A stretch of DNA of 63,000 nt, filler included, from an uncultured Methanosarcinales archaeon (lineage in GTDB: Archaea > Nanobdellota > Nanobdellia > Woesearchaeales > BS150m-G63), in assembly GCA_964630685.1 (NCBI GenBank). It is 4 parts of 4 records of this genome, joined end to end, with 100 filler letters (N's around TTAATTAATTAA, not from the genome) between each part and the next. Parts side by side here need not be neighbours in the genome. Positions count along the whole stretch, not along the records: positions 1 to 26,629 come from CAZVVW010000012.1; positions 26,730 to 47,743 come from CAZVVW010000014.1; positions 47,844 to 61,312 come from CAZVVW010000016.1; 1 more part is not named here. The stretch is one strand, 5' to 3'. The translations under genes and the position numbers were made by a program. The notes below the pieces were generated by a model that was not told the origin of the DNA, did no database searches, and was given only the letters and a program-made list of their open reading frames with translations. Below are positions 1 to 56,359 of the stretch, in pieces. How positions within the stretch are numbered: position 1 is the stretch's first letter; each line of letters begins with the position of its first letter.

Positions 1-718
1 CCCAACCAACAGGATTTGATAATATTCCGAAAGCCGCTAAAGCTATTCCTCCTGCCCCCACACCCACTGCAATCCACCCTCCCTTTCCTGCCGTGGTCTG
101 ACCTTTAAAATGTTCAGCTATCATTTTCATGTTATCGTCTCCTTTTGCGTACAAGAAAATGGTTGAATAAGTTTTTGAGGTATCCAAAAAATCTCCTTCA
201 AACGAAATTGGGTCCCCTGTTTCTGGGGCTACTTCATGTGCTCTTGGAGTGTCATAATTCATGAGATAATCGATATAAGTTATTCCTTTTCCTCCCGGAA
301 TTTTTTTGGTTGTTAGATATTCTGAAAAACCTTCTAAATTTTGGTTTTGGTGTTTGAAAGAAATTATGTGGCAGATTGAACAGTAAATGGTTTCTTTATC
401 TCCAAAAAGGTTTGCTTCCCCCCTAGCGAATTGGTCCCAACAATCATACATTGATTTTGCTAATTGGTATTTTGCTTTTTCTTGATCTTTTGTTTTTATT
501 TTTAATTCTTGTGTGGGGCATTTTATTTCTGTGTTCATTGATATTTTTCCAAATTTAGTGAAATCATGAGCCATTACACTTTGTTTACAAATTTGTTTTG
601 TAGAACCAGAATCCATTGATGCAAATAACTCTGATTGAAAAATAAGTAATATAAAAAGAATTGCAAGAGTTAGTATTATTAAAAGAAGATATTTATTCAT
701 TATTGCTTTTTTGTTCAT
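1..718 (-). CDS. Class III signal peptide (pilin-like) protein, 5' part; continues at 47844..48059 (about 292 aa in total)
   Basis: Hand translation MNKKA|IMNKYLLLIILTLAIL...CKQSV...AKSMYDCWDQFARGEANLF...YCSICHII; paralogous to 844..1923; open to the window edge; not in the ORF track. Confidence 0.85.
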   Translation of the reverse strand, partial: MNKKAIMNKYLLLIILTLAILFILLIFQSELFASMDSGSTKQICKQSVMAHDFTKFGKISMNTEIKCPTQELKIKTKDQEKAKYQLAKSMYDCWDQFARGEANLFGDKETIYCSICHIISFKHQNQNLEGFSEYLTTKKIPGGKGITYIDYLMNYDTPRAHEVAPETGDPISFEGDFLDTSKTYSTIFLYAKGDDNMKMIAEHFKGQTTAGKGGWIAVGVGAGGIALAAFGILSNPVGW

Positions 719-741
719 TTTGTTTTTTAAAATGAATAAAA

Positions 742-818
742 CTTTAAGACTTTTGGGTTGCCTAAAAGGCAACACTGAAGACGGAGGCTTTAGCCGAAAT
801 TTTCTGTCTTATTGTTTT
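742..818 (-). repeat. Structured ~75-bp intergenic repeat, copy 1 (upstream of a pilin-like gene)
   Basis: Near-identical to 2384..2456 and 49544..49620; TAAGAC/GTCTTA terminal stem and GTTGCC-loop-GGCAAC hairpin. Confidence 0.9.
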
Positions 819-843
819 GTTCATTTTTGGTTTTAATGATTGA

Positions 844-1923
844 TTAGTTTACAATTAAAGAACAGTAAGGTACTTCTTTATACTCAGGATCATCTGTGGT
901 ACAATCTTCGACGCATATCTGTTGTTCTTCTGAAAATGGAATATAGGGGGGTAATAATTGTATGCCTCCAATACCACAATCCTCACAAGCTTCGAATGCC
1001 TTATCTGCTGTCGCATATCCTATCCCGACCCCTGCCCCCACAATGGCTAAAGTGGTGATTATTCCTCCAAGTACTGAGCTTCCTAAAACAGTTAGACTAA
1101 TGGAGGCTCCACCAGTAAATGGAGAGAGAATCACCCCCCCAACCACTAAAACAACCGCACCGACAACTCCTGCTATTTTCCAAAAAGTGTTTTTTACTTT
1201 ATACCTATACATATTTATAAAAATAGTTGAACCAGGAATAAACAGTTCATATTCTAATTGGGATCTTACATCTTCAGAAATTTCTGGAGGTTCTTCATTA
1301 AATAAATATTCATAATAAGTTTTATCGCTATGTTTGGTGTTGTGTTCTGTCAAATACAATTTTTCTGTGGTTACCATGTATTTGGGAATATTTTCTTTGG
1401 CTATATCTTTTGCTTCTGTTTCGGAAATTCCTTTTTTTTCCATTAAATAAGTGTGGTTTAAATCGTTTGTATGTGATAAAATAAATCTTTCTAGTTTTTT
1501 ATCAAATTTTATTGTTTTACATAAAAGACAGTAGTTTTTGTTTTTATCATCCCAGTTGGAAAAAGGATCCATCTTACCTTCCCCTACCATATACCAACAT
1601 TCTGCCATTGCATCTGCTATTCTTTTGTGTGCTTTATCTTGATTTATTTCTCCATTTTCTACTATGTCTTTTTTGTAGAGAATAAATTCCTGTCTTGGAC
1701 AATTAAGATTATTTAATGGCTTTCCAGCACCAGTCATTGTTGGTATTTTTTTAGATTGTGCTGCTGCAATAATGCTTGTTCTGCAATTTTCTATATCTCC
1801 CCCCTTAGTTATTACTTTTCCTGCGCCCATGACAAATACACCTATAATAAAAGCAGCAGATAGAATTAGAATGATCTTAGTTAATGACTTTGGAGCCATT
1901 GATGTACCTCTTTTGTTTTTCAT
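844..1923 (-). CDS. Class III signal peptide protein with a C-terminal Gly-rich hydrophobic hairpin
   Basis: KNKRG| leader + hydrophobic helix; conserved Cys pattern (AMAECW..., YCLLC); segment IAGVVGAVVLVVGGVILSPFTGGAS...GAGVGIG. Confidence 0.85.
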   Translation of the reverse strand: MKNKRGTSMAPKSLTKIILILSAAFIIGVFVMGAGKVITKGGDIENCRTSIIAAAQSKKIPTMTGAGKPLNNLNCPRQEFILYKKDIVENGEINQDKAHKRIADAMAECWYMVGEGKMDPFSNWDDKNKNYCLLCKTIKFDKKLERFILSHTNDLNHTYLMEKKGISETEAKDIAKENIPKYMVTTEKLYLTEHNTKHSDKTYYEYLFNEEPPEISEDVRSQLEYELFIPGSTIFINMYRYKVKNTFWKIAGVVGAVVLVVGGVILSPFTGGASISLTVLGSSVLGGIITTLAIVGAGVGIGYATADKAFEACEDCGIGGIQLLPPYIPFSEEQQICVEDCTTDDPEYKEVPYCSLIVN

Positions 1924-1986
1924 TTTACGAACTTTTTGGATTCAAAAAGGGGGGTTTTATGATTTTTTAGTCTTGTTGTTTTTATT

Positions 1987-2088
1987 CTAGGGGGTTAGGA
2001 TTGTTTTTGATACTCTAAAGACAATTATCCCTATGGCAATTATACTGATTATAGAAAGGATTAAAATTGTCAGCTCTTTTATTGTCAT
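1987..2088 (-). CDS. Putative 33-aa hydrophobic micro-protein (pilin-helix-like)
   Basis: MTIKELTILILSIISIIAIGIIVFRVSKTILTP*; fills the gap between co-oriented pilin genes. Confidence 0.5.
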   Translation of the reverse strand: MTIKELTILILSIISIIAIGIIVFRVSKTILTP

Positions 2089-2126
2089 AAATTAAACTTA
2101 ATAAGGGGAGTATTTAATATTTTTGG

Positions 2127-2366
2127 TCAACCCGTGACATTTAAGCAACAATATTTGTATGTTGAGTCTTTCATTGGAATCGGTGCAAAATCTCCGCAAG
2201 CTGATGCTGTTGTTGAAGGTGTTCCGCCTTTTGCTCCACAATCTTCAATTCCTGAACTAAATTTACCCATTCTTCCAGAGAAAATTACTGCGAGGATTAT
2301 AAGAACTAGTAAAGCTATTGCAGCTAAAATGATTATATTTAAAGATAATCCTTGTGCTTTTTTCAT
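2127..2366 (-). CDS. Small type IV pilin-like protein (79 aa)
   Basis: MKKA|QGLSLNIIILAAIALLVLIILAVIF; C-terminal Cys (YCC); start moved to the ATG because the upstream extension is the repeat. Confidence 0.9.
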   Translation of the reverse strand: MKKAQGLSLNIIILAAIALLVLIILAVIFSGRMGKFSSGIEDCGAKGGTPSTTASACGDFAPIPMKDSTYKYCCLNVTG

Positions 2367-2383
2367 TTTATTATGAAATAAAT

Positions 2384-2456
2384 CTTTAAGACTTTTGGGT
2401 TGCCGAAAAGGCAACACTGAAGACGGGGGCTTTCTCCGAAATCTTCTGTCTTATTG
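2384..2456 (-). repeat. Structured intergenic repeat, copy 2
   Basis: Same core as 742..818 and 49544..49620. Confidence 0.9.
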
Positions 2457-2503
2457 CTTTTTTTGTTTTATGTTTTAGTAAATAAAAAATAAAAAATAAA
2501 AAA

Positions 2504-2761
2504 TTAGCTTACTGTAAGACAGCATTGCATATCTGGATCTACTTTATTATCTGCATCATAACATTTCCATGTTGGATGTTGTGTGAGTCCTTCCCCACAT
2601 TCTTCAATACAACTTCCACCTTGTTTTTCACAGTTACTTGTTTCTGAACCCCATTTACCCATTCTTCCAGTAAAAATTACTGCAAGGATGACTAGAACTA
2701 ATAAAACAAGTGCAGCTATAATGATCGTGTTTAATGATAGACCTTGTGCTTTTTTATTCAT
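2504..2761 (-). CDS. Small type IV pilin-like protein (85 aa), candidate major pilin
   Basis: MNKKA|QGLSLNTIIIAALVLLVLVILAVIF; GAGGTGA RBS upstream; paralogue of 2127..2366. Confidence 0.9.
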   Translation of the reverse strand: MNKKAQGLSLNTIIIAALVLLVLVILAVIFTGRMGKWGSETSNCEKQGGSCIEECGEGLTQHPTWKCYDADNKVDPDMQCCLTVS

Positions 2762-2835
2762 GTAATCACCTCGGTTTAATTGTGATATTGTTTTAATAAC
2801 TACGGAATATTTAAAGTTTTCTATAAGAATAAGAA

Positions 2836-3369
2836 TTATTTGCACATATGAAATTTAAGTTCTAATGTACCCACATAGGTTGGCAAAGGTTGATTTGCAG
2901 ATTCCCAAACAGTACAATTTCCTTGTTCTATAAAAATTAAATCGTTTTGTTGAGTTGTTGCTAAGAATTGATATCTACGGTTTCCACCTAAATTTATCAT
3001 AAAATTGTTCAGAATTGTGTTTATTTGTTGTTCTGCATACGCGCATGATGCTTGGCCTGAACAAGTTATCCCTCCAGGATAAGATTCTGCACAATCTTTT
3101 AGTAGTTCTGATAAATCTAGATTTCTACAATCTGTATTTACATCTATCATCGAACCTAAAATGTTGGAAGCTAATTCTGACCTAATGAATGTTTCTCTTT
3201 GTTGATCTGGTTTTTTTGAAATCATAAATTTAACTACAAAAAGCATCCCTATTGTTATAAAAACTATAACTATTGCTAATCCCAATATTTCTGTCTGTGA
3301 CTTTTTCATTTTATTAAAATGGAATATCTTGGAATTTGTTTGTGGTGTGTTTTTTTTTGTTTTTCTCAT
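2836..3369 (-). CDS. Pilin-like protein
   Basis: KKS|QTEILGLAIVIVFITIGMLF; start could be the downstream Met. Confidence 0.85.
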   Translation of the reverse strand: MRKTKKNTPQTNSKIFHFNKMKKSQTEILGLAIVIVFITIGMLFVVKFMISKKPDQQRETFIRSELASNILGSMIDVNTDCRNLDLSELLKDCAESYPGGITCSGQASCAYAEQQINTILNNFMINLGGNRRYQFLATTQQNDLIFIEQGNCTVWESANQPLPTYVGTLELKFHMCK

Positions 3370-3389
3370 TGTTTTGTTTAATTTTTTAT

Positions 3390-3890
3390 TTATTTGAAAG
3401 TGTAATATTTTATTCTTAATAATCCAATTCCATATCTTCCAGGATAAGGGGAGGGATAGAAAATTGATACTGGAACAAATGTACTAAAATATTGGTCTGA
3501 AGTTACCCCTTCATAAATAAGTTCATAAGATGTGGTTGTAGGGTATATTTCTGCTATCTCTATCATAGTGTTAGAAAAAACTGATTGATAATATTGCGCT
3601 CTTTCTGAGGCAATTATTTTGAATGCTTCTAATTTGAGTTTATCTATGCAAAGAGTTTTTGTGATATTTTCTGCAGTACATTTTAATTCTGGGAGGAATG
3701 AAATTGTTTGAGCGACATCGATGGACTTTTTTTCTTCCATTTTTTCTAATCTTGATTGAAAACTTTTTCTTTCCATATTCGCATAAAAGAAAATTCCAAA
3801 AAATAATATCATAAAAAACACTATTAAGACTGCGATGGTTTCCCCCATCTTCATTTGTGCTTTTTTCGTTCTTCTTGTTTTTGATTTCAT
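3390..3890 (-). CDS. Pilin-like protein
   Basis: KKA|QMKMGETIAVLIVFFMILFFGIFFY. Confidence 0.85.
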   Translation of the reverse strand: MKSKTRRTKKAQMKMGETIAVLIVFFMILFFGIFFYANMERKSFQSRLEKMEEKKSIDVAQTISFLPELKCTAENITKTLCIDKLKLEAFKIIASERAQYYQSVFSNTMIEIAEIYPTTTSYELIYEGVTSDQYFSTFVPVSIFYPSPYPGRYGIGLLRIKYYTFK

Positions 3891-3902
3891 TTTTTGGTTA
3901 TT

Positions 3903-4976
3903 CTAATAAATTAATGTGCAAGATTTTTCTTGTGTATCTTTATTAGCACTTCTTAATGTTTGTATTGAATTACTTATCTGTAATATATTTGAATCAAAAA
4001 AAGTTATTGAATTTTCCACTATGGTGCTTAATCCATTATTGTTTATATCATAAGTGCCTTTACATCTGCTAGGGGTTTGAGGGTCATTGTAAAGTGCTTC
4101 TGACCTTGCTTTAAGGAGATTAGATATTAAATGTAATCTATTAAATGCTTTTTGCATATTACATTTGTAAAAATTATAAGAATCTGAAAAGATTGATGCG
4201 TATGCTTCTGAGTCTGAGATATAATGGATATAATCTTCTAATTCAAATAAGTTGTCGTCTGTGAAATAATAGAAACTTATTTGTTTTGATGATGTGTCTA
4301 TCTTTACTGCATTTATATTTGAAGGATTTGCTGATGACAAAATTTCATCTGAAACTGTAAATGTTGTTGGATCCGAATCAAAAAATATAAATTTAAAATT
4401 GTGGTTCCCATCATCCCCTTCTTGTTGGGCTGTGTTGATAGTTCTCAAATATTTATTTGTTTTTTCTGGGAATTTATTATAAAAATTGTTTGTTGAATCA
4501 GAAGATCCCACAAAAATATATTTTATATCTGTCCCTGTTATGTATAAAAAATTAGTTACATAAAAAGGAATATTCCAAGAAAGTGTCCATGAAAGGATTT
4601 TTTTTCCATATAATTCCGATGGTGCAAAAATTATTTGGGCTGGTGTTTTTTCGTTCACCCCTGTTTCTCCAATAGAATATTCCGAATAACAACTCGGCGT
4701 ATCTGATTCATCAAAATCAGTACATGTTGTAAAATCACAGATAAAATTAAGGGTTGTTTGAGGTATATCGATGTCTAATTGTCTTGCCTGAGAAAGTGTT
4801 GCTCCAGTAAAAATGGATTTTAATTCTGTTTTTACTGTTAATGCAATATTCATCTGAGATTTTTCTTTTTGGGTACCAACTAAATTAATGAAAAAAAGGA
4901 GAATTACTCCTCCTGCTATTAATACAAATATCCAATTAAACGATACTTCTACTGCTGCTTTTTTTGTTTTTTTCAT
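3903..4976 (-). CDS. Pilin-like protein (357 aa)
   Basis: KKA|AVEVSFNWIFVLIAGGVILLFF. Confidence 0.85.
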   Translation of the reverse strand: MKKTKKAAVEVSFNWIFVLIAGGVILLFFINLVGTQKEKSQMNIALTVKTELKSIFTGATLSQARQLDIDIPQTTLNFICDFTTCTDFDESDTPSCYSEYSIGETGVNEKTPAQIIFAPSELYGKKILSWTLSWNIPFYVTNFLYITGTDIKYIFVGSSDSTNNFYNKFPEKTNKYLRTINTAQQEGDDGNHNFKFIFFDSDPTTFTVSDEILSSANPSNINAVKIDTSSKQISFYYFTDDNLFELEDYIHYISDSEAYASIFSDSYNFYKCNMQKAFNRLHLISNLLKARSEALYNDPQTPSRCKGTYDINNNGLSTIVENSITFFDSNILQISNSIQTLRSANKDTQEKSCTLIY

Positions 4977-5003
4977 AATATTTTTATTTGTGTTTTAATT
5001 TGA

Positions 5004-5561
5004 TTATTCTATTTCGGATAATTTAGCTTTTCCCCCTACACCTTCTAATCTTACTTTTACTTTGGATCCTTTTACTTCAGGACAAATATATCCTGGACTA
5101 TCTATCTGGATTAAATGTTGTCCATTGGATTCAACTAAATAAAATTCTTTTGCTAGATCTTTTATTAAGAAAACGTTTGCGCTGTCATCTTGCCAAGCTT
5201 CATAAACTAGTGGGTGGAGTGATTCTATGCTTGGGTCTGCCCCTTTATCGAGATCTATAAAACAGACTTCATCGTACCCTTCTGGAACTTTGAATTCTGG
5301 TGCCCTAACAGTACCATAATCGTTGCTTACTTTTTCTACAGCATTCCTAACATCTGTTTTGAAACCAATTAAATCTACTTGTTTTGCTCTTTCCCTCATC
5401 TTACCTATGCTTTTATACCCATATAATAAAACAAGTCCAATCACTATCATAGAAAGCACGTAAACAAATATCTGTGCCTGTATCTGTGCTTTTTTAGATG
5501 TTTTTTTTCTTGAAAAAATTCTAAATTCTTGGTTTTGGTTGTGTTGGTTTTTATTTTTCAT
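5004..5561 (-). CDS. Pilin-like protein
   Basis: KKA|QIQAQIFVYVLSMIVIGLVLLYGY; GGTGAT RBS precedes the ATG at 5561. Confidence 0.85.
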   Translation of the reverse strand: MKNKNQHNQNQEFRIFSRKKTSKKAQIQAQIFVYVLSMIVIGLVLLYGYKSIGKMRERAKQVDLIGFKTDVRNAVEKVSNDYGTVRAPEFKVPEGYDEVCFIDLDKGADPSIESLHPLVYEAWQDDSANVFLIKDLAKEFYLVESNGQHLIQIDSPGYICPEVKGSKVKVRLEGVGGKAKLSEIE

Positions 5562-5575
5562 CTTATCACCCATTA

Positions 5576-8500
5576 TTATTTTTTCTTTTTTGATTTTGGG
5601 GTAGGGAGTTTATTTAATGGGTCTTCTTTTTCCACTAAACTTGATAATTTTTTGAACTTTTCAGATTGTGTTGGTTTTTGTTCTTCTTTAGGGGTTTCTG
5701 GTTTTTGCTTTATTTTTGATTCTGGTTTTTCTTTTGTGAGAAGTTTATCTAATGCACTTGGTGTTTTTTCTTTTGGTTGAGTTATTTTTTTGGTTGTTGT
5801 TTTAGTTTCTTCTTTTGGTTGGGTTTTTTCTTCTTCTCCAAATGCTTCAAAGAGTTTTTTCCTTTTTCTTGTTTTTATGACCCTTCCAATTGAAACTGGT
5901 TTTCTTCTTAATGGTGCTCTTGGTTGGATGGGGGCTCTTTGAGGCACTCTCTGTTGTGCTGATTGCAATTTGGGTTGTGGTTGTGCTGATTGTGGAAGCA
6001 TTTCTCTTTCTATTGATATAAATGGGGGCTTTGTTAGGATTTCTATTTTTGCATTTAATTTTATGTAAGGGGGTTGTTGGAGTAGAGATATTATTGGTTT
6101 TGCCTGTGGGCCTTGTGAAGGTGTTTGGGCGGGGGGAGTTATTACTATATAAGGTGGTTTATCTGTGAAAGAGATTATTTTTCTCATGTAAAGATAATAT
6201 CCCCCTCCACCGACTACTGCTAATAATATGAATAAGAAGATTAAGAAAGGCATTAATTTAGATTTAGGGTAATCTAACTTATTGCAAGGGTTTGTTCCTT
6301 TTTCTACTTCTTTGCCATCTTTGTGTTTATCTCCATCTGTGTCTGCTTCTTGAGGGTTTGTTCCTGAAGTGCAGAGAATACATTCTTTTTTATTTGTTAA
6401 TCCATCTTCATCGGGATCTTCATTTGGTTCTGCACAAGTTCTACAATTAAACCATTTTTGTTCACATACATCTGACATCCCATCATTGTCTGTATCTTGA
6501 AAAGGGTCTATTTTTTTACTGCATTGATTTGTTTTTAATGTGCAATTTTCACAAGAGAGCTTTCCTGATTCAAATTTATCAAAGTCAAAACAGCCCCCTA
6601 CATTTCCCCAATTAGTATCCTCACATTGTTCTCCTGGGTTGATTGTTGAATCATTACAAACTCCTGATGGTCCTGTACAATTATTTGTGTTGAATAGACA
6701 GTTTTCTCCGCAAGTTAGAATTCCTCCATTGAATCCAAAAAGGGAGCAGGTTTTTCCATCTGTTGAATTTTCACATTGCTCTCCAACATCAATAATTCCG
6801 TCTCCACAAGTCGTGAATTCTTGACAAGTGTTTGTTTTGACTGAGCAATATTCTGAAAGGCAATCTGAATCTAAGATGCATTGTTTATCTATTTCACATG
6901 GAGGACAGCTTCCTCCACAACCTATGTCTGTTTCTTCGCCATCCTTTACTGCATTTGAACAAGTATCATAAAAAATACATAATTTTGAGTCTGGATCGCA
7001 ATGTTCCGATAGACAATCTGAATTGTTCAAGCATGCTTTACCATTTGAACATCCTTGACAATTTCCTCCACAATCAATGTCTGTTTCATTTATGTTTCTA
7101 GTGTTGTCAAAACAAGAGGGTCCTGTAGATGTTGTATCACATTTATTCGAAGAATTACAATAATTGCTTAAACAATCTATGTTGTTACGGCATGTTTTGT
7201 TGTATCCACAAGGGGAACATGAGCTTCCACAATCAATGTCTGTTTCATTGAAATCTTTTGCACCATTATTACATGTTCCTATTAATAATAGTGCTAGATC
7301 TACAGTTATTCCATCACTTGTTTTTTCTGGGCTCCATAATCCTACTTTATTTTTTGCTTTAAATCTGAAATAGTAAGTTCCTTTGTCTGTAAGATTGAGG
7401 TCTCTTGCCGTTAAGTCTTCTGGACCTGATTTTTCATCTTGAACTATTGTCCAGTTTTGAATTGCCTCGTTTGGTTTGTATTCTCTGCTGTTATCTTTGA
7501 ATATGCTGTAGTTATATTCTTGGATTCCTGATTCGTTGTCTAATGCATGAAATTTTACAAATAACTTGTTTTTGTAATAAGTAAATTGACTTAAGTTTTC
7601 CATTCCTTGGATTGGATTTGAATCATTTACATAAATCAGATTTGGAGGGGATGTGTCTATTGTAAATGTTGTAGAAATTGGATTTATTAGTCCTTCTGGA
7701 GTGTTTACTAAACATTGAAAATAATAAGTGTGTGTTGCGGTTGCCAAAAGAACTGGGTTACTTATGTGGTTCTTTGTGAATGTTCCAAAAGTTCCTCCGC
7801 TTCCTGAAATTTCTTGTGTGTTATTTGAAAAATGGCATTTTGCGACTTTATTTGTAGTTAGATTAAATCTTATTGAAGCCGAAGAAAAATAAGAATTTGG
7901 TTGAGGGTGGTTAATTGTTATTTCTGCTTCTGCTTCACTTTGTACTTCTATATTTAGTGAAGAAGTTGTTGAATCTAATCTCGCTCTGTTTTTGCAGATA
8001 ACATAAAAAGTGTTTGTCTGAAAATCTATCAATTGTTGATCTGTCAGAGTTTGTGAATGAGATAATTGGTAATATTCTTCTTTTGTTTGATTTTCTCCTG
8101 TGAAAGGTGTTGATTCCTCAAATGTTGTTTGTGTTTTACTGTATGTGCAAACAGTTCTTTCGTTAGTGGTTACTTCTAGTGTTGTTAATATTGGAAATTC
8201 TGCCACATCATCTGCATGAATAGATGTTATTTCTGGAGCCGATGTATCTACATGGAATGGAAATTCTTGCATGGTTGTTTCATTGTTGTAACTGGTTTTA
8301 CATGATGCATATAATGTAGTTGTAGTTGTGCTATCAAAATTTGATAATATGTGTGTTGAATTATTTTCTGTTGTAAAAAAAGAAGTCATGTCTTCATAAT
8401 TTTTTGGAACTAGTGCGTATCTGCAATCTGAAAGAAGACTGCTTTTTATGCTTATGTTAAAAACTTCTGTCGGTGACCAGCCAAATCGTGGCTCTAATAG

Positions 8501-8842: not shown

Positions 8843-8879
8843 TTTTTCTGTTGTTTTTTATTTTTTTATTTTTTGTTGC

Positions 8880-9040
8880 TTGTTTTGTGATTGTTTTGTG
8901 ATTGTTTTGTNNNNNNNNNNNNNNNNNNNNNNNNNNNNNNNNNNNNNNNNNNNNNNNNNNNNNNNNNNNNNNNNNNNNNNNNNNNNNNNNNNNNNNNNNN
9001 NNNNNNNNNNTTGTTTTGTGATTGTTTTGTGATTGTTTTG
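8880..9040. repeat. 11-bp tandem repeat (TTGTTTTGTGA)n spanning a scaffold gap
   Basis: Unit visible on both sides of the N-gap 8911-9010. Confidence 0.85.
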
Positions 9041-9075
9041 TTTTGTGTTTTTTTGTTTTTATTTTACTGCTTATT

Positions 9076-18890: not shown

Positions 18891-18893
18891 ATT

Positions 18894-44271: not shown

Positions 44272-44281
44272 TTTTGGTGTA

Positions 44282-47843: not shown

Positions 47844-48059
47844 GCAGGAGGAATAGCTTTAGCGGCTTTCGGAATATTATCAAATCCTGTTGGTTGGGCA
47901 ATAGGGATTGGAGGATTACTATTCGCAGCAGGAACTTTAGTATATGATCATTTTTTCAATACAGATGTAGAATGGGCCTCATTTATTCTTTTCAGAGAAT
48001 ATGATGTAGAACAATTAAAAAACATTAAATGCGAAGTAATGCCAATAGCACAAACTTAA
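47844..48059 (+). CDS. 3' part of the gene that begins at 718(-)
   Basis: AGGIALAAFGILSNPVGWAIGIGGLLFAAG...KCEVMPIAQT*; first 55 nt are the reverse complement of 1..55, in frame. Confidence 0.85.
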   Translation, partial: AGGIALAAFGILSNPVGWAIGIGGLLFAAGTLVYDHFFNTDVEWASFILFREYDVEQLKNIKCEVMPIAQT

Positions 48060-48117
48060 CATATAATAACCCAAGCATAACACAAATAATTTAAATAAAC
48101 AAAACTTACTAAAAAAA

Positions 48118-48261
48118 ATGAAATCAAAAAAAGGGTTCGAATTTTCTTTTATGGCTAAATTAATTTTAATCTTAATGCTTTTAATAATATTTTTAGTTTT
48201 TCTCATAGTAAAATTCAAACCAAACATATTGGGTTCAATAAGTTTATTTGACGTATGGTAA
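48118..48261 (+). CDS. 47-aa micro-pilin (absent from the ORF track)
   Basis: MKSKKG|FEFSFMAKLILILMLLIIFLVFLIV...; stop overlaps the next ATG region. Confidence 0.75.
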   Translation: MKSKKGFEFSFMAKLILILMLLIIFLVFLIVKFKPNILGSISLFDVW

Positions 48262-49190
48262 TCAAAAATAAAAAAGCAGGTTTCCTAAATAGTAAATTAG
48301 GAAAAATAATTATTGTGTTAGTGGTATTAGTTGTAATTATGTCTATATTCTACCCAAAAATCTGGAGCGGATTAGAAACAGCAATGCAAACAGTTGGAAT
48401 AAATATCTGCCTCAGTTCGAGAATGAATTCTGCAACATACAATCAAGAAATAGAAAGGCATATAGATTATGAAGAGTTTGAAGAAGCAACAGATATGTAC
48501 CTAGAATATCGTCAATGTTTTTCAGACCCACAACTAACACTAAATACAGAAAATACAGAGATATTAGCAGAACTCGTATGTAAAAAAGGATATTTCAATT
48601 ATTCTTCAGAAATATACAACCACCTTTCTTCAGAAAACCCTTCGGAAACAGAAAAAACTTGTTTGACCCTAGAAAACATCCAAGATTTCCACAATAGAAG
48701 AAAAAACAAAGACTCACTAGAACTATTAGAACAATTAGAAATACTAGATTATGAAGTTCCTTCATGGAATTTATTAATAGCGGAAGCATATCTTGCTTCA
48801 GAAAAATATGAAGACTCATACGAATCCGCGTACTATAATTCTTGGGATTTAGAAGATTTAACAACAGATCAAAAAGAAAAAATAAAAGAAATAGTAGAAA
48901 ACATTTACACTTCAATAATAGCAAAAAAAATGGTAGATATTTATGATGATTCAGAATCCTTTTGTATATATCGGACAACATATTTTCCTTATACCACAAT
49001 CTCTTTAGGGGATTTATCAGACGCTACAACTGAACAAGGAAAAAGCATAGCAATTGGAGGAGATGAATCTCATTTAGAAATGGGAGAAGATTTAACTGGA
49101 TGTTATACAATAAAATCCGATTCAGAAAAAGTGATGATTGAAGATTATTGCGCATCACATTGTAATGAAATAATGGAATATACATCATAA
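48255..49190 (+). CDS. Pilin-like protein with helical (TPR-like) body
   Basis: KKA|GFLNSKLGKIIIVLVVLVVIM; LLIAEAYLASEKYEDS. Confidence 0.75.
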   Translation: MVIKNKKAGFLNSKLGKIIIVLVVLVVIMSIFYPKIWSGLETAMQTVGINICLSSRMNSATYNQEIERHIDYEEFEEATDMYLEYRQCFSDPQLTLNTENTEILAELVCKKGYFNYSSEIYNHLSSENPSETEKTCLTLENIQDFHNRRKNKDSLELLEQLEILDYEVPSWNLLIAEAYLASEKYEDSYESAYYNSWDLEDLTTDQKEKIKEIVENIYTSIIAKKMVDIYDDSESFCIYRTTYFPYTTISLGDLSDATTEQGKSIAIGGDESHLEMGEDLTGCYTIKSDSEKVMIEDYCASHCNEIMEYTS

Positions 49191-49216
49191 AAAAAGAAAA
49201 TAAAAAAACACCAAAA

Positions 49217-49501
49217 ATGAAAAATAAAATAATGAACAAAAAAGCACTAGTTTCAAGAACAATAGTTTTAATGACTTTGGGAATAATAGTCTTAATTATT
49301 CTAATTATACTTTTTTCAGGAAAAGCGAGTATTTTTTCAAAAGGTGTAGGTGGAATTTGTACAGATCAAGAAGGAACATGTTATTATCCTACAGCAGAAT
49401 GTCCTGAAGAGAAACCAATAAAAATGATGGCAAAAGGATGCCCATCAAATGAAACAGATACTGAGAAAAAATCTGGATTTTGTTGCACTTCTTTAGGATA
49501 A
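49217..49501 (+). CDS. Small pilin-like protein
   Basis: NKKA|LVSRTIVLMTLGIIVLIILIILF; Cys-rich head ending FCC. Confidence 0.85.
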   Translation: MKNKIMNKKALVSRTIVLMTLGIIVLIILIILFSGKASIFSKGVGGICTDQEGTCYYPTAECPEEKPIKMMAKGCPSNETDTEKKSGFCCTSLG

Positions 49502-49543
49502 ACAAAAACAAAACAAAAGAAAGCTTAACAAAACAAAATGAAC

Positions 49544-49620
49544 AAAACAATAAGACAGAAGATTTCGGCTAAAGCACCCATCTTCAGTGTTGCCTTTTAG
49601 GCAACCCAAAAGTCTTAAAG
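49544..49620 (+). repeat. Structured intergenic repeat, copy 3
   Basis: Same core; identity with copy 1 extends through the next gene's MNKKAI codons. Confidence 0.9.
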
Positions 49621-49643
49621 CTTTATTCATTTTAAAAAACAAA

Positions 49644-49874
49644 ATGAACAAAAAAGCAATAACCACACAAACAATAATTTTATTAGTATTAATTCTCATA
49701 GTAGTAGTAACTTTTTTGTTTTTCTTTTCGAGTCAAGCAAATATTTTTTCAAAAGGAACAATGAGTTGCGAATCAAAAGAAGGCGTGTGTATGAATGTCA
49801 CAGAATGTGAAGGCATTATTTCAAATTTCAAATGCACTAAATCAGAATATGCATGTTGCATAAAAATGACTTAG
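49644..49874 (+). CDS. Small pilin-like protein (76 aa)
   Basis: MNKKA|ITTQTIILLVLILIVVVTFLFFF; ends ACC. Confidence 0.85.
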   Translation: MNKKAITTQTIILLVLILIVVVTFLFFFSSQANIFSKGTMSCESKEGVCMNVTECEGIISNFKCTKSEYACCIKMT

Positions 49875-49911
49875 CAAAATTTATATAGTATATTCAATTA
49901 AATTTAGTAAA

Positions 49912-50394
49912 ATGAATAAAAGAGGATTTACAACAGAAGGAAAAATAGGTGGAATTGCGTTAGTTCTAGTTGCAGTGGTGGTGATGTTATTTATTTTTCA
50001 AGGTCCTGCAAAAGCAGCAAATCTAGAATTCATATCACAGACACAAATAAAAGTAAAATTAGATAAATGTACTTTTGATGCAGAACAGGCATATTCTAAA
50101 GGAATTTCATTTTCAGATACAGATGACGATGGACACCCAAATACTTGTGATATTTGTTTAGGTGTAGATCCTGGAGCAAATACTGAAGATGGACAAAATG
50201 ACTTAGATGATGATTTAGATGGTATGCCAAACGATTGCGACAAAGATGCTTATAATCCCAACGAATTCACCTGTTTAGATTATAGGGTGTGGGATAAACA
50301 AAACAATAAATGGTTAAATGCTTGTTGTACAGAACTTGCAGGAGACAATAATTTTAAAATAAGTCCCAACCTCATCTGTAAAAAAGTAACCTAA
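49912..50394 (+). CDS. Pilin-like protein with TSP3-like Ca-binding repeats
   Basis: MNKRG|FTTEG...; DTDDDGHPNTCD, DDDLDGMPNDCD. Confidence 0.8.
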   Translation: MNKRGFTTEGKIGGIALVLVAVVVMLFIFQGPAKAANLEFISQTQIKVKLDKCTFDAEQAYSKGISFSDTDDDGHPNTCDICLGVDPGANTEDGQNDLDDDLDGMPNDCDKDAYNPNEFTCLDYRVWDKQNNKWLNACCTELAGDNNFKISPNLICKKVT

Positions 50395-50395
50395 G

Positions 50396-52255
50396 ATGGA
50401 TTTCTTTAACCAAAAAAAGGCATTTATGGGACTTTCTTTATCTCAAATGGTGGGCATAATATTAGTTATACTAATCTTTATTCCGTTTACAAGTTTATTT
50501 GCAAAAACATTCAACACTTTTTTTGGAGGGGAAAACCCATCCATAGAAAATTTTCGCTCACTCACAGAAAAGGTTCAAGAATTACTTCTAAATCCAGATA
50601 TGGTTGCAATAGAAACAAACTTCCCTTATTTTATTAGGGACAATGATTATGTTATAGTTGCTTTCGATTATGAATGGTATGGAGATGGCACAGATTCTAC
50701 AGAAGATAATGTCCCTTATGGTCCATTTGAATCAAATCTATGTCACGATGAAGGAATAAGGAGGCCAATGGAATGTTTAGATAAAGCTTGTTTGTGTATT
50801 TATGAAGACACAGCAGTAAATGATTTCATGGAAGGGGGAGATCCAGCACCAATAGAATGTGTTCCATTCGGAAATAATCTCTTCTTTTCAGGTGCAGAAG
50901 GTTACCCAGATTATTTAGAAGATAAAGACGGAACTAACGATGGATATAAAAAAGAATTCATTGAAGACACAATTAATTTTACAAACCTAACAAAATTAGA
51001 TTATGAGTTTTTTGTAATCTATGGAGAATGCGGAAATTCAGGATGTAAGGTTTATGAAAATAATGATTGTGATGAGGAATTTAATCAATTTGACGCAAGA
51101 AAACTTTACATAGAAAAATATTATGATTTAGATAGTCATAAAACTCATATACTCATCGCAGTTCAAGAAGGCAAAATAAATCAAAGGGCAGAAAACGCAT
51201 CAAAATTAATAGAAGCATTAAGAGAATCAGAACAAATGGTTGTACAAACCCCTTTATCTGAAATGCCAATAACTGGCCCGCCAACAATTTCCAATGAAAC
51301 AATAAAAAGAATACTTGAAAGTGCAAGTTCTCCAGCAGTCATAGCATATCAAGCATTTTATGATTTTGGAGTTCAATATGATATAGATCCGGCATTTGCA
51401 TTAGCATTTTTCAGACATGAATCAAATTATGGAACATCCAATAACTGGGTCGGAAAACCATCAATTTGCCTACCTAATAGTTCTAATAATATTGGAAATA
51501 TAAAATACACTCAAAGTTGTACAAACAATTATGGCGCAACAAATTGTAAGGGATTCTGCCATTATCCTACATGGGAAAAAGGAATTGAAGCATGGTACTC
51601 ATTGATTAAAAATAGTAATCATTATGTTGCTGGAGGGAGAGAGACTATCGCAGAAATACTTCCAGTATATGCTCCATCAAGCGATAACAACAATATTCCA
51701 GAATATATTACAGCAGTATCAGATTCAGTATCTTCTTATCGAGAGTTAGAACCCAACATAGAATTAAGACTAGTATCTATTGATTCAAACGAGGTTTCTT
51801 GCACCGGACAATGTAAATTAACACAAGAAGCATATGTTAAATTAATTGAAGCAAATAATATAGCAAAACAACAAGGAAGAGAATTGCGCGTATATTCTTC
51901 TTATAGAACTCCGGAACACCAAAGGACTCTTTTCTTAAATGGCGATTGCAATAGGCAAATGGTCGCAGGCCCAACAGTAGATTCATCAGAGTGTAGTATG
52001 AATAATCCAATAATTCAAAATTTAAATAATTTTAACGGCCCACATACTACTGGAGGGGCAGTAGATTTAAGGTTCGAAGACACTTCCTGGGATGATATGA
52101 CTACAGCAGATAAACAACAATTAGAAGATGTGATGTATCAAGTAGGGTGGGTAAGATACGCAAATGAATGGTGGCATTTTGAATACGAAACTATTAGGTG
52201 GGCAAGAGCAGACACTAATAATGATGGTTTTCCAGATCAATCAGCATTGGTATAA
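50396..52255 (+). CDS. Pilin-like protein fused to a GH73/lysozyme-like glucosaminidase and an M15 (VanX/VanY-like) peptidase
   Basis: KKA|FMGLSLSQMVGIILVILIF; IDPAFALAFFRHESNYG...NNIGNI...YPTWEKGI...YAP; SSYR, HTTGGAVD, EWWHF. Confidence 0.85.
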   Translation: MDFFNQKKAFMGLSLSQMVGIILVILIFIPFTSLFAKTFNTFFGGENPSIENFRSLTEKVQELLLNPDMVAIETNFPYFIRDNDYVIVAFDYEWYGDGTDSTEDNVPYGPFESNLCHDEGIRRPMECLDKACLCIYEDTAVNDFMEGGDPAPIECVPFGNNLFFSGAEGYPDYLEDKDGTNDGYKKEFIEDTINFTNLTKLDYEFFVIYGECGNSGCKVYENNDCDEEFNQFDARKLYIEKYYDLDSHKTHILIAVQEGKINQRAENASKLIEALRESEQMVVQTPLSEMPITGPPTISNETIKRILESASSPAVIAYQAFYDFGVQYDIDPAFALAFFRHESNYGTSNNWVGKPSICLPNSSNNIGNIKYTQSCTNNYGATNCKGFCHYPTWEKGIEAWYSLIKNSNHYVAGGRETIAEILPVYAPSSDNNNIPEYITAVSDSVSSYRELEPNIELRLVSIDSNEVSCTGQCKLTQEAYVKLIEANNIAKQQGRELRVYSSYRTPEHQRTLFLNGDCNRQMVAGPTVDSSECSMNNPIIQNLNNFNGPHTTGGAVDLRFEDTSWDDMTTADKQQLEDVMYQVGWVRYANEWWHFEYETIRWARADTNNDGFPDQSALV

Positions 52256-52297
52256 ACAACAAAAATTATATAAACTAATTTCTTTACAACACACAGT

Positions 52298-53350
52298 ATG
52301 AAAAAAAGAGGGCAGATTACTCATGAGATTTATTTTATCATGATGGAAGTGTTTATAGCACTTGCAGTAGCATTTTTTCTTTTCAAATATGTTAATCTAG
52401 TGGTTGAAGATACAACTTTAGAAAGAACAATCTTATCAAGAGACTTAGCTCTTCTTTCAAACACAGTTTATTCCGCACCAGGAAATTTAGTTTACACATA
52501 TGAAAGTAGAACAAATCTTTCAATGTTTGATTACGCATTTACTAAAAAACCTCCCCTGATGGAACCACAATTAACAGTGCTTCAGCAAGGAGTTGCCGAA
52601 CTTTCTTACCCATTTGTATTAAACAATCTTTTTGCAAGAGATATAGGTAAATCTGATAAACACACTGTTTTTTCTCCTCAAGAAATATTATTTCAAAAAG
52701 AAGAACAAGAAATAACAGTCAAAAAAGAATTAACCCCTCATTTGGAGGGGGCGGTTTGCCCGGTTCTAGATACAAAAAAAACAAACACGACAACATTAAA
52801 GGTACTTTTAGATCCTGGAAAAGATTATGAAAATCCCGGAGCAAATAATACAGCACTCAATTTAATAGAATACAAAATAACCATTGATATTTCAAAAGAA
52901 ATAGGAAGGCTGTTACAACAAAATTTTCCAAATATAGTTTTTACGAGAGAGAACACAAAATCTAACTTAACAGAAAGATTAACAAAAATAAAATTAGAAA
53001 ATGCAAACATAACTCTAAGCATCCATACAGGAGATTACCAACCTACAAAACCAAATACATTTAAGATGTATTATAATTCAAAATCCAACAAAAAAAAAGA
53101 AATCCAAAAATTAGCTTGTTTTATTTCTAATGAAATATCAGGGCAGACCACACTCAAAACAACAACCCTCCCATTAGAAATAGAAACACTACCAGATTTA
53201 GATTCAAGAAGAATATTAACACCCACAAGCAAGATTCAACTATATCTAGAAGTTGGGAATATTCAAGCATATGCAAATAATAACCCTTTACTCGATTACC
53301 CCCAAATATCCAATGCAATAAAAGACGCAATTGAATTGTATCACAGATAA
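52298..53350 (+). CDS. Pilin-like protein fused to an N-acetylmuramoyl-L-alanine amidase (Amidase_3) domain
   Basis: MKKRG|QITHEIYFIM; VLLDPGK, IEY, VFTRE, LTER, LSIHT, YLEVGNI. Confidence 0.8.
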   Translation: MKKRGQITHEIYFIMMEVFIALAVAFFLFKYVNLVVEDTTLERTILSRDLALLSNTVYSAPGNLVYTYESRTNLSMFDYAFTKKPPLMEPQLTVLQQGVAELSYPFVLNNLFARDIGKSDKHTVFSPQEILFQKEEQEITVKKELTPHLEGAVCPVLDTKKTNTTTLKVLLDPGKDYENPGANNTALNLIEYKITIDISKEIGRLLQQNFPNIVFTRENTKSNLTERLTKIKLENANITLSIHTGDYQPTKPNTFKMYYNSKSNKKKEIQKLACFISNEISGQTTLKTTTLPLEIETLPDLDSRRILTPTSKIQLYLEVGNIQAYANNNPLLDYPQISNAIKDAIELYHR

Positions 53351-53351
53351 G

Positions 53352-53933
53352 ATGAAAACAAAAATAAACCACATAAAAGGAAAAAAAGGCTTATTCACTT
53401 TTAACATGGTATATATGATACCTAGATTAATTTTCTTAATAATAGTTCTCTTTTCAGTCATCATGCTTGTAGGGATGTTCCTAAAGATACATGCAGATAC
53501 TTTTTATGTGGAAGCAGACCTCTTTGCCCAAAGCTTAATTTATTCTCCTCACGGAATATCCTATTATAATCCTTTGTTGTATAAGGTTCAGCCAGGAATA
53601 ATAGATAAAACAGAATTCACATCTGGAATTATAGAATCCAGAATAAACAATAATTCTTTTTATTATGGTAAACAAAACAAACACATCGCAGCAAAAATAA
53701 CTTTAACTAGTGTGGATAATTCCACAAACCACACAATTTACTATAATGAGGGGAGAGGGAAAGCATATGGATATAAATTTTGGAACCCCATAGCTAAAGC
53801 GGAAATAGAAGGAAAGGGCGCAGCAAGATATTTGCCAAAAATAATACCTACCCTAATAAAGGAATCATCAGGCCACAATGTAATTTACATTCCAGGAAGC
53901 ATATCATTTGAAATCACAATGCCCAACAAATAA
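53352..53933 (+). CDS. Pilin-like protein
   Basis: KKG|LFTFNMVYMIPRLIFLIIVLFSVIML. Confidence 0.8.
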   Translation: MKTKINHIKGKKGLFTFNMVYMIPRLIFLIIVLFSVIMLVGMFLKIHADTFYVEADLFAQSLIYSPHGISYYNPLLYKVQPGIIDKTEFTSGIIESRINNNSFYYGKQNKHIAAKITLTSVDNSTNHTIYYNEGRGKAYGYKFWNPIAKAEIEGKGAARYLPKIIPTLIKESSGHNVIYIPGSISFEITMPNK

Positions 53934-53991
53934 AATAATTAAAATAATCAAAAAAAACAAAACAAAAATAAATAACAATCAAAAAGAAAAA

Positions 53992-55542
53992 ATGAAATCA
54001 AAAAAAGCATTCATAGCATCTACCTTGATAGATTTTTATGCCTTTGTAGTCTTCATATTAGTTGTTTTAATCTTTTTTGTAATTTTTCTATTAATGAAAG
54101 GTTGTGATGGATCACCCTCTTTAGACGATGTGCCACATCAAAAATTAAACGTAGATTCTAATTATGTTCTTTTAACTTGGTTAAAAAATCCATTAGATTC
54201 ACAAACAAGATCAGCAATCTCAAAAATTTATAAGATAAATCAAATAAATAGTTTTTCAAATGGCCACACAACAAAAGTACTTAATTTTTCAAAACAACAA
54301 AACTATACTTTTTTTTTGAATGCCTCTCCACGTATAATCTACAGTAATGCAACAATAGATTTAGGGGAACTATTTTCTTTTACCAATAATCATATAGCAT
54401 TCGTTTTAGCTAACTCAGATCCTAAAATAAAAGAATGGGAAAATCTATGTAAAATATTATCAACAACAATACTCCCTTATAGAATATTAAAAAAATATAC
54501 TAGCTCATTCACATATGGGTTAAGAGATAATGAAGGTACGTCCTGTTTAGATAAAACAGTTCCACTAATTGAAGAACAATGGAAAAATGCAACACTTTTT
54601 ACGATGAAAAATCATAACTGGGACAATAATACTCCCCCAAAAAATATGCTTGTTTTAGTATCAGATAAATGTATAAATTATTCTCCTCAAGACTCCATTT
54701 CTGAAGAAATTCAAGAAACCGCAATAGCCAAGAATATATCAATATGGCAGATGTATAGAAGCAACGACCCTCAAGAAATTAAAGATTGTAAAGACAAACA
54801 TAACCAATTAAGTCAGATGGGGGGAGAGTTTTTCACATACAACAACACGATTAATTTTACAGACCACATTCAAAATAAAATATTGGAAATATCTAATGAT
54901 CGATCAGAGATTTCTATATCTGTTGATTTTGGAACTGATGCCAAGATCGATTTTAAAAGTAACAATACATTTAATCACACTACACTTGAATTCAAGAAAG
55001 CACTAAATACATACACCACAAAGAAGTGTACCCCAAATACAAAATGTCTATTCCCTATAAAGATTTCAGGAAAAAAAGGTAGTTTTTCTTTAGGTAATAT
55101 ACAAGTACAAAAAACATTAGGGGATGCTAAAAAGAGGATTAGAAGTAATTTAAAAAAGGCAAATATCGCAGATTTAATAGCATTCAGTCAAACAGACGAA
55201 GATTTAGAAGAATTAAGAGGCGAAAACATAAATTCTTTTTTTAACAACGCATATCATGATTGGTGGCATTTAATAATCAATTATCCAGATGGAACAAAAG
55301 AAGAATATGGTCACAGTTACACAGCAGATACCATCCCTTCAATTATTTTAGCTGCAACAATGAGGGTAGGTCTTTTTCCAATACTTCCAGCAGGATTAAG
55401 TTATGTATATGATTATTCAATTCTCCCAGAATCGGAAAAAATAAACATCAATCAATCAATACCTTCATTGAATAAAGATCCAATAAACATAGAGTTTTCA
55501 AATTGGGTAATAACATATGCTTCATTAATTCCTTTTACTTAA
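53992..55542 (+). CDS. Large pilin-like protein, possible degenerate vWA-like domain
   Basis: MKSKKA|FIASTLIDFYAFVVFILVVLIFF; LVLVSD...AIAKNISI...QMGGEFF. Confidence 0.75.
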   Translation: MKSKKAFIASTLIDFYAFVVFILVVLIFFVIFLLMKGCDGSPSLDDVPHQKLNVDSNYVLLTWLKNPLDSQTRSAISKIYKINQINSFSNGHTTKVLNFSKQQNYTFFLNASPRIIYSNATIDLGELFSFTNNHIAFVLANSDPKIKEWENLCKILSTTILPYRILKKYTSSFTYGLRDNEGTSCLDKTVPLIEEQWKNATLFTMKNHNWDNNTPPKNMLVLVSDKCINYSPQDSISEEIQETAIAKNISIWQMYRSNDPQEIKDCKDKHNQLSQMGGEFFTYNNTINFTDHIQNKILEISNDRSEISISVDFGTDAKIDFKSNNTFNHTTLEFKKALNTYTTKKCTPNTKCLFPIKISGKKGSFSLGNIQVQKTLGDAKKRIRSNLKKANIADLIAFSQTDEDLEELRGENINSFFNNAYHDWWHLIINYPDGTKEEYGHSYTADTIPSIILAATMRVGLFPILPAGLSYVYDYSILPESEKININQSIPSLNKDPINIEFSNWVITYASLIPFT

Positions 55543-55654
55543 AACTATAAAAAAGAAAAACTAAAAGAAAAATAAAAACAAATAAAACAAAGCAACACTA
55601 AACAATGGACAATTTACAATAAACAATAAACAACAAATAAAACTAACAGAAAAA

Positions 55655-56359
55655 ATGAAATCAAAAAACAAAGAGATTCAAAAAATCTCTCAGCATTTTA
55701 ATTTCAAAAAAATGAAATCAAAAAAAGCAATGATATTTAATATATCTTTAGTAGTTATAACTATAGTCGTACTTTCAACAGCATTCATTGCAATAAATAA
55801 TAAAATAGAAAAAGTAAAAAACCAAGAACCTATTGGAACAAAACAATACCAATTAATAACAACCTATCAAGAAGCAGAAAAAGCACAATTCTATATAGAA
55901 CAATCAGCAAAGTACCATATACTAGAAATCAAAAAACAATTAATAAAAAAAAGTGGAAGTATCCAAAACAAGGAATACATTCAAAATTTTACAAATTTTT
56001 TAGAAAAAAAATTAAATAACTCGCTTTCATTATATCCTTATAAAAATATAATTGTCCCTTTACTCAATAATTATGAAATATCATTTACTGAAGAAAACAC
56101 TTTATTAACAGCAGCGGCAAAAGAGGACATGGTTTTATCTCATTTATATGGAGAATATCATTTAAATCCATCTTTCATCCAAGATTTTAGTTTATGTGGA
56201 GATGGAGTAAAAGAAGGGAATGAAGAATGTGACGATGGGATTGATGACGCAAATGAATTATTTATAACAACAAACCCATTTAATCCAGACACAGATGGAG
56301 ATGGAATAACAGATGGAGAGGAATTGTCTAACGGAACAAATCCCATTAGCCCCAATTAA
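55655..56359 (+). CDS. Pilin-like protein with C-terminal TSP3-like repeat
   Basis: KKA|MIFNISLVVITIVVL; CGDGVKEGNEECDDG; DTDGDGITDGEE..GTNP; start may be the downstream Met. Confidence 0.8.
   Translation: MKSKNKEIQKISQHFNFKKMKSKKAMIFNISLVVITIVVLSTAFIAINNKIEKVKNQEPIGTKQYQLITTYQEAEKAQFYIEQSAKYHILEIKKQLIKKSGSIQNKEYIQNFTNFLEKKLNNSLSLYPYKNIIVPLLNNYEISFTEENTLLTAAAKEDMVLSHLYGEYHLNPSFIQDFSLCGDGVKEGNEECDDGIDDANELFITTNPFNPDTDGDGITDGEELSNGTNPISPN

Follow-up and report, generated by a model that had tools for sequence, protein, structure and literature searches.

The DNA analysed here, which we call the window, is a stretch of 63,000 nucleotides from an uncultured archaeon of the order Woesearchaeales, phylum Nanobdellota (GenBank assembly GCA_964630685.1; designated G000, with relatives given other G numbers). 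The genome amounts to 936 kb in 35 contigs and is 96.6% complete. The window contains four of these contigs separated by spacers, i.e. C12 (1-26629), C14 (26730-47743), C16 (47844-61312) and C25 (61413-63000), and it holds a long series of genes for proteins with class III leaders that is divided between C12 and C16. Treatment of 1-63000 as one contiguous stretch was rejected, as positions 26730-47743 and 61413-63000 are other contigs; the former is DNA unrelated to the pilin locus.

The two halves of the locus are joined as follows. A 55-mer is common to the starts of C12 and C16 and occurs at only those two places in the genome, an open reading frame (ORF) running from 775 to 1 continues in frame through the 55-nt overlap to 48059, and in a genome of the same genus (G001) the whole series, both halves included, lies on one contig in the same order. 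The joining of 1..26280 with 47844..56359, made in a preliminary description of this DNA, is therefore correct. The joined locus extends ~34.7 kb from the A24 peptidase gene to position 56359, against a given extent of ~35 kb, and its genes are then co-directional as had been claimed, with the A24 gene as sole exception. Intergenic gaps are mostly below 100 bp. A scaffold gap of 100 N at a low-complexity repeat (8911-9010) lies between two giant genes; the corresponding spacing in G001 is 60 bp.

The order of transcription is the A24 gene (divergent), genes for a protein of 1323 amino acids (aa), S3, proteins of 3208 and 1088 aa, S8 to S11, two small proteins, S14 and S15, and then a 47-aa peptide, S17, two small proteins, S20 to S24 and S26, followed by RPA, YdjM and RadA. 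The features of the proximal part and of the junction are:

25189..26280 (+): A24 prepilin peptidase, 363 aa, seven transmembrane (TM) segments predicted by hydropathy; divergent, with a weak Arc_PepC match (E 1e-4)
21179..25150 (-): large Cys-rich protein, exported, 1323 aa; carries a Gly-Ser linker and a Hint domain (~719-860; Pfam)
19004..21163 (-): S3, class III leader (KKA followed by QVTIF), 719 aa, conserved slot (leader rule and relatives' loci)
9076..18702 (-): giant exported protein, 3208 aa, CarboxypepD_reg, Big_13 and Glucodextran_B Ig-like domains (Pfam), 96 Cys; candidate adhesin
5576..8842 (-): large exported protein, 1088 aa, C-terminal TM segment (863-881) and cytoplasmic tail; candidate membrane anchor
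5004..5573 (-): S8, class III leader, core subunit
3903..4976 (-): S9, core subunit of 357 aa with a class III leader and no Pfam family
3390..3890 (-): S10, core subunit with a class III leader, paralogous to S23 over its full length
2836..3369 (-): S11, class III leader, core subunit; modelled as a long N-terminal helix and four-strand sheet
2504..2761 (-): S12, small class III protein rich in Cys, 85 aa, of a tandemly expanded family; candidate major pilin
2127..2366 (-): S13, small class III protein, 79 aa, S12 paralogue
844..1923 (-): S14, class III leader of atypical form, head with conserved Cys, hydrophobic Gly-rich hairpin within the protein (250-295)
1..718 (-): S15, 5' part, class III leader, S14 paralogue
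47899..48059 (+): S15, 3' part on C16, in frame over the 55-nt overlap
48118..48261 (+): S16, 47-aa class III peptide of leader and helix only, Flp-like in size, conserved slot

Leaders were recognised by a strict rule devised for this analysis, i.e. a [KR][GAS] site followed by a hydrophobic helix. About 19 genes with K/R-K/R-G/A/S leaders had been reported, and 19 are counted here; 17 follow the strict rule, while two (844-1923 and 48255-49190) are atypical, keeping the basic-G/A site with two lysines shortly after it. The strict rule is matched by 19 of 25 ORFs of the locus (counted by hand) versus 74 of 919 elsewhere in the genome (p ~1e-15), and the matches include two giant proteins whose leaders appear Sec-type by eye. 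Gln is the commonest residue at the +1 position. The divergent A24 peptidase described at the head of the locus has both aspartate motifs, D22 and D85. A single-query search found this peptidase in 18 of 61 genomes, and its gene lies head-to-head with that of the Hint slot in 6 of 25 A24 loci tested. A second A24 peptidase of G000 is encoded on contig C2.

The core subunits are widely conserved. Searches with single proteins in 61 genomes found S9 in 48, S22 in 35 and S23 in 32, and profile searches of 251 genomes of the phylum, all at least 90% complete, found S9 in 226, S14/15 in 220 and the N-terminal domain of S26 in 211; G000 itself is counted in these tallies, as are genomes marked as unpublished (G002 among the 61, and G278 and G279 among the 251). 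The S9 matches include 50 genomes of other orders. The preliminary description had named gene order in relatives as a test of refutation, and the order is kept across many families. It is retained, as far as contigs reach, in 22 relatives chosen from marker matches, and among 20 further genomes S9 to S11 are together in 19, with the distal block following within 20 kb in 14. Ten loci of other orders have the proximal block (an S3-like gene, large proteins and S8 to S11) followed by a gene of 744-873 aa (one cut at 356 aa). Two of these genes were checked and match S_layer_C, an arrangement that is not found in G000. The bare machine is predicted to be ancestral in the class. Three further observations concern these blocks. 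At 47502-47743 (+) an S-layer-like gene begins and is truncated where C14 ends (S_layer_C, E 1e-5); its homologues come after S11 in other orders. On contig C5 of G270 a four-gene block upstream of S8 occurs in two copies that agree in lengths and starts, through recent duplication or as an assembly artefact. More S3-like and S8-like class III genes lie beside large exported proteins elsewhere in G000 (C1:54000-91000, C3:55539, C1:17661 and C9:7101-8460); it is possible that these are alternative tips or adhesin modules.

The subunits have few named relatives. The S9 family comprises 2209 clusters at 50% identity, and a search of the ESM Atlas with S9 returned only unnamed Nanobdellota clusters, with no usable named match for S14. 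An alignment of S10 with S23 extends over 146 columns (probability 82%), and S11 resembles both in the leader only. The S14/15 family has conserved cysteines and, in most rows of the alignment, the Gly-rich hydrophobic hairpin; the S15 orthologue of G001 is intact, with 292 aa. The model of S11 (mean predicted local distance difference test (pLDDT) 85.8) has N-terminal helices over residues 2-51 and a four-strand sheet, and that of S22 (pLDDT 77.5) has a helix from 5 to 59, a beta head and then an amidase fold. Such a layout is like that of pilins. Comparison of S11 and S14/15 profiles with the PDB gave nothing at E <0.1, the fold search with S22 was taken up by matches to the amidase domain, and NCBIfam named no pilin among 25 proteins.

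We note an element of ~70 nt, with an outer stem (TAAGAC...GTCTTA) and two inner hairpins, that is present three times in the locus (~740-810 (-), 2385-2455 (-) and 49551-49620 (+)), each copy directly upstream of a class III gene (S15, S13 and S19 respectively). Its folding z score is -2.6 to -3.5. These are the only three copies in the genome; it was not found in the G001 locus and has no Rfam match. It may be a very small mobile element or a signal that stabilises mRNA.

Three large exported proteins lie in the proximal block, where three giant adhesins had been described. The adhesin function is a prediction for the 3208-aa protein only, from its Ig-like and CarboxypepD domains; its orthologues range from 900 to 5000 aa. 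A peptidoglycan hydrolase family was found on none of 34 giant proteins scanned (11 more, split over two sequence pieces, were left out). The Hint domain of the exported 1323-aa protein begins with Cys, ends with VHN and is bounded by Gly-rich linkers on either side. Its motifs are present in one of eight orthologues of the slot; since the other seven have no Hint domain, it is a recent, lineage-specific insert, with self-cleavage possible. A 63-aa gene (18699-18890, -) between S3 and the giant has an AbrB-type DNA-binding look by eye, with no convincing Pfam match.

The distal part of the locus comprises:

48255..49190 (+): S17, class III leader of atypical form, slot of variable cargo
49217..49501 (+): S18, small class III protein rich in Cys
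49644..49874 (+): S19, likewise a small class III protein rich in Cys, 76 aa
49912..50394 (+): S20, class III protein with acidic Asp-rich repeats
50396..52255 (+): S21, class III leader, GH73 glucosaminidase (320-412) and M15/VanY peptidase (474-597) domains (Pfam)
52298..53350 (+): S22, class III leader, 55-residue N-terminal helix, beta head and Amidase_3 domain (169-329) (Pfam, model)
53331..53933 (+): S23, class III leader, core distal subunit
53908..55542 (+): S24, class III leader, conserved N-terminal domain and lineage-specific insert
55655..56359 (+): S26, terminal class III subunit, here with a TSP3 repeat alone after the N-terminal domain; the main hydrolase slot in relatives
56449..59660 (+): RPA, YdjM, a gene of 100 aa and RadA; these neighbours are conserved downstream, and their membership of the apparatus is not clear

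Two of these subunits carry domains predicted to act on peptidoglycan. S21 has E342 in the GH73 domain and R504, H550, D557, E591 and H594 in the M15 domain (SxHxxxxxxD, ExxH and an upstream Arg). Both motifs are intact, and these are predicted enzymes; we take the catalytic and ligand roles of residues in S21 and S22 from what is known of their enzyme families. The Amidase_3 domain of S22 matches an amidase fold (Z 20.9, root-mean-square deviation 2.3, 174 residues aligned). E191, H243 and E318 are present, while K175 replaces the first Zn-binding His (DPGK). Amidase_2 was not found elsewhere in G000. Of the payloads listed in the preliminary description, three are confirmed (hydrolases, TSP3 repeat, hydrophobic Gly-rich hairpins), while the vWA-like and PKD-like labels have no Pfam support at E<=2. 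The TPR-like label is not supported either, with only a sub-threshold match in the G001 orthologue (E 0.13).

The cargo is more extensive in relatives. Pfam was scanned over 400 distal proteins, counting domains only on leader-bearing or slot-family proteins, and eight families were found, i.e. M23, SLT, Amidase_2, Amidase_3, NlpC/P60, GH73, M15/VanY and 3D. Hydrolase cargo is present in 47 of 79 loci of the same order (15/22, 5/14, 1/3 and 26/40 in successive batches), a count in which G147 lay outside the scan, five short proteins were left out of the last batch, the NlpC/P60 domain of G282 (on a following gene without a recognised leader) is not included, and G028, whose distal block lies beyond the stretch, is scored as a miss. 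The first hydrolase domain mostly starts at residue 160-270. S26 is the main cargo slot, used in 22 of the last 40 loci, with up to three families in a single protein (G241). The variable cargo consists mainly of predicted peptidoglycan hydrolases from many families without relation to one another, which are exchanged at fixed slots, a point that the preliminary description had missed. Multi-enzyme proteins occur at the ends of some loci, combining NlpC/P60 with a beta-lactamase fold (L151:1431-4892), GH3 with phosphoesterase and NAGPA (L086:3023-8236), or Amidase_2 with 3D and a GDSL lipase (L166:3033-7277).

No assembly ATPase or TadC-like platform gene had been seen in the window, and the T2SSE and T2SSF profiles have no match there. 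T2SSE ATPases above the cut-off are found at three other loci of G000, on contigs C6, C15 and C8. Those on C6 and C15 are each accompanied by two platform genes and their own pilins. The third is an orphan, a 766-aa ATPase (C8:11073-13373; T2SSE E 9e-16) with no pilin alongside, directly followed by a fused platform gene of 730 aa (C8:13379-15571) whose T2SSF match is weak and below the cut-off (E 8e-4). This platform gene is present in 60 of 61 genomes. In other orders its orthologue lies within 4 kb of S14/15 in 14 of 16 loci, and within 200 bp and co-oriented in nine; G240 and G281 have no such link. The ATPases at the distal block in these orders are 53-61% identical to that of C8 and 24-34% to those of C6 and C15. 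Two more genomes of other orders have class III arrays 4-5 kb behind the ATPase/platform pair, while G070 does not. A search of the genome for VirB11-like ATPase and TadC genes, proposed in the preliminary description, thus leads by linkage in other orders to the pair on C8. As its orthologues adjoin the distal block in 14 of 16 loci, the missing motor is very likely the orphan VirB11-like ATPase and fused platform of C8, and we infer one machine that is split differently between the orders. The ATPase loci on C6 and C15 are less likely partners, because both come with pilins of their own and it is orthologues of the C8 pair that accompany the block in other orders. Ahead of the orphan ATPase (C8:8029-10972) are three membrane genes of ~190 aa and a pair of small divergent genes, conserved with it in relatives; these are candidate motor accessories.

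Taking the gene content, order and linkage together, we think it somewhat probable that the locus encodes a type IV filament-type contact apparatus driven by a VirB11-like ATPase, the distal subunits of which carry predicted peptidoglycan-cutting domains. The modular contact/penetration organelle proposed earlier is supported in part, as a modular pilin-type contact apparatus, with its order conserved and a motor pair named. Far greater complexity than in characterised archaeal pili had been suggested; with 19 leader genes the locus is larger than the 11-gene Epd cluster (PMC13705601). In such an apparatus A24 peptidases would trim the basic leaders. The shaft would be formed of the small, tandemly expanded S12, S13, S16, S18 and S19, with two minor-pilin-like complexes (S8-S11 and S22-S26), and would be assembled on the C8 ATPase and fused platform, encoded away from the locus. 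The giant proteins would grip the target cell. S21, S22 and S26 would be adaptors, the N-terminal ~170-190 residues docking in the filament and the hydrolase opening the wall locally, whereupon the Gly-rich hairpins of S14 and S15 could meet the host membrane.

A number of observations weigh against this reading, some bearing on the filament and others on the cargo. The fold search with S11 placed no solved pilin in the best 50 matches, the top match being to a Cache-type sensor domain at background level (Z 8.4), although the folds need not differ for that reason. When eight genomes of the same order were viewed from the platform side, the block was not nearby in any of them. In addition, class III leaders are found on substrate-binding proteins in genomes that have no type IV filament locus, 1376 archaeal proteins in the part of PMC13705601 available to us. 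The leaders might then be membrane anchors, or belong to a short pseudopilus, with enzymes displayed as a surface patch in the manner of the bindosome and no extended filament. The lack of a pilin fold match, the unlinked motor genes and the binding proteins are all consistent with this, as is the composition of the leaders, where E is not among the eight commonest residues at +5. Yet the ATPase/platform pair is directly linked in 14 of the 16 loci of other orders, many subunits without cargo (S8-S11, S16 and S23) are held in a fixed order, and the small subunits are tandemly expanded as in major pilins, so that anchoring without a filament seems to us unlikely.

On the side of the cargo, other orders have it in only one of 15 loci, in four of the 15 S26 is missing from the stretch, and the S26 of other orders has only 233-273 aa, compared to a median of 553 in the own order. 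Given the rarity of cargo and the short S26 in other orders, wall-cutting is not a universal job of the apparatus. Within the order, 32 of 79 loci have no Pfam hydrolase on locus proteins, and as the loci were taken from ranked match lists, with roughly one for each family, and related genomes do not count independently, these counts are not population rates. A PHROGs search with 48 unassigned cargo proteins named none of them. The S22 amidase does not have the full set of Zn ligands (His, Glu, His), its first His being absent, and DPGH is found in only five of 51 long S22 proteins; since the first Zn His is replaced and DPGH is rare, the amidase of this slot may often only bind. This degeneracy could also be accommodated by a general adhesion pilus whose hydrolases scavenge peptidoglycan of dead cells as a source of sugars and amino acids and do not attack live bacteria, and some loci have sugar-releasing enzymes downstream (GH3 and NAGPA in G112; NAGPA in G265). 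Against scavenging, a single slot exchanges enzymes of unrelated chemistries, as would follow if the targets change; an enzyme tethered to a filament is suited to acting locally on a cell; and most S14/15 rows retain the Gly-rich hydrophobic hairpins. We regard scavenging as rather unlikely, and slightly more so than simple anchoring.

The genes downstream of S26 bear on another possibility. In 67 of 86 loci RPA follows S26 at a distance of no more than 6 kb, frequently together with YdjM and RadA. This would be expected of a competence-like pilus that breaches bacterial walls for the uptake of DNA, RPA and RadA being co-regulated with it. However, ComEC (PF03772) and DprA (PF02481) were not found in G000 at its 96.6% completeness, no DNA-binding domain was named among the 400 distal proteins scanned, and RPA is inverted or displaced in several loci. 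DNA uptake is accordingly a reading to which we give very little weight. A scan for Sigma-70-type promoters gave no excess over shuffles, although that promoter model is not suited to archaea.

The contact apparatus that we favour can be compared with known systems. As far as the available texts extend (PMC4858521, PMC13705601), archaeal type IV filaments share with it a VirB11-like ATPase, a TadC-like platform, an A24 peptidase and class III subunits; pilin genes lying apart from motor genes are a further shared feature. Nanobdellati pilins are described there as scattered and mostly unassignable, with no mention of peptidoglycan in that part of the survey (PMC13705601), whereas here ~19 subunits form an ordered block with no Pfam or NCBIfam pilin family. 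Nanoarchaeal ATPases of subclade 4F without known pilins have been noted in the corresponding part of PMC4858521. An S-layer-like gene near the locus is a mark of that subclade; the gene after S11 matches S_layer_C in two loci of other orders, and G000 has no such gene there. The System 1 or Epd pilus of Methanococcus maripaludis shares many minor pilins per operon, a longer A24 peptidase at the locus and Gln as commonest +1 residue. It differs in having two platform genes, where the machine linked here has one fused gene of 700-740 aa. EppA, the dedicated peptidase of that system, has nine TM segments; the present peptidase might be a counterpart, with 363 aa, seven TM segments by hydropathy and a weak Arc_PepC match. 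A system-1-like locus also exists separately in G000, on C6, with two platform genes and its own pilins. No hydrolase cargo is described for Epd in the text available (PMC13705601). The bindosome and class III substrate-binding proteins of Sulfolobales also have a functional domain on a class III leader, but the cargo of our locus is predicted to be catalytic and peptidoglycan-directed, and it occupies fixed operon slots that are not beside ABC transporters; no solute-binding Pfam family was found on the 400 distal proteins. The Kil Tad pilus of Myxococcus xanthus is a functional analogue with interchangeable tips, but it is bacterial and requires a needleless type III secretion system, and the available part of that report (PMC12075869) does not mention peptidoglycan.

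Peptidoglycan hydrolases of archaea, DPANN included, are of the same enzyme families as the cargo (PMC12352652, PMC8204110, PMC9723730, each available in part). Those studies treat enzymes that are Sec/Tat-secreted or giant (median 1947 aa), and the word 'pili' occurs 0 times in their main texts, nor are pili mentioned in the available part of PMC8421398. Module 98 of PMC8204110 consists of unannotated families with one TM segment, possibly including genes of this locus. A literature search, with most subscription papers outside its reach, found no description of the locus. Our best reading is an undescribed type IV filament subsystem that would be neither system 1 nor the bindosome.

Two further features of C14 are unrelated to the locus. 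A 976-aa protein (38072-41002, +) has no Pfam match and an exonuclease-like stretch by eye. At 45133-47008 (+) a small gene, a nucleotidyltransferase-like gene (Polbeta, E 6e-5) and an ORF6N-domain gene are flanked by direct repeats of ~59 nt.

Bacterial hosts or predation have been proposed earlier for Woesearchaeota, and murein transglycosylases noted in DPANN, in the parts of PMC8204110 and PMC9723730 consulted; all cultivated DPANN archaea need archaeal hosts, according to the available text of PMC11291902. Judged by the hydrolase cargo, many Woesearchaeales would have bacteria as their hosts or prey. It is possible, though we lean a little away from it, that the locus is a core host-engagement machine of Nanoarchaeia, a single filament with swappable tips, of which the Woesearchaeales version is armed with murein hydrolases against living bacteria. 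If so, the abundant Woesearchaeales would be contact-dependent parasites or predators of bacteria, with a prey range legible from the cargo at the tip. A surface machine with peptidoglycan hydrolases would provide a concrete and testable mechanism for the parasitism of an archaeon on bacteria, and the cargo would predict which lineages should sit on bacteria. In addition ~20 unannotated families, present in about nine of ten genomes of the phylum, would gain an assignment, and the view of Nanobdellati pilin genes as merely scattered would be corrected.

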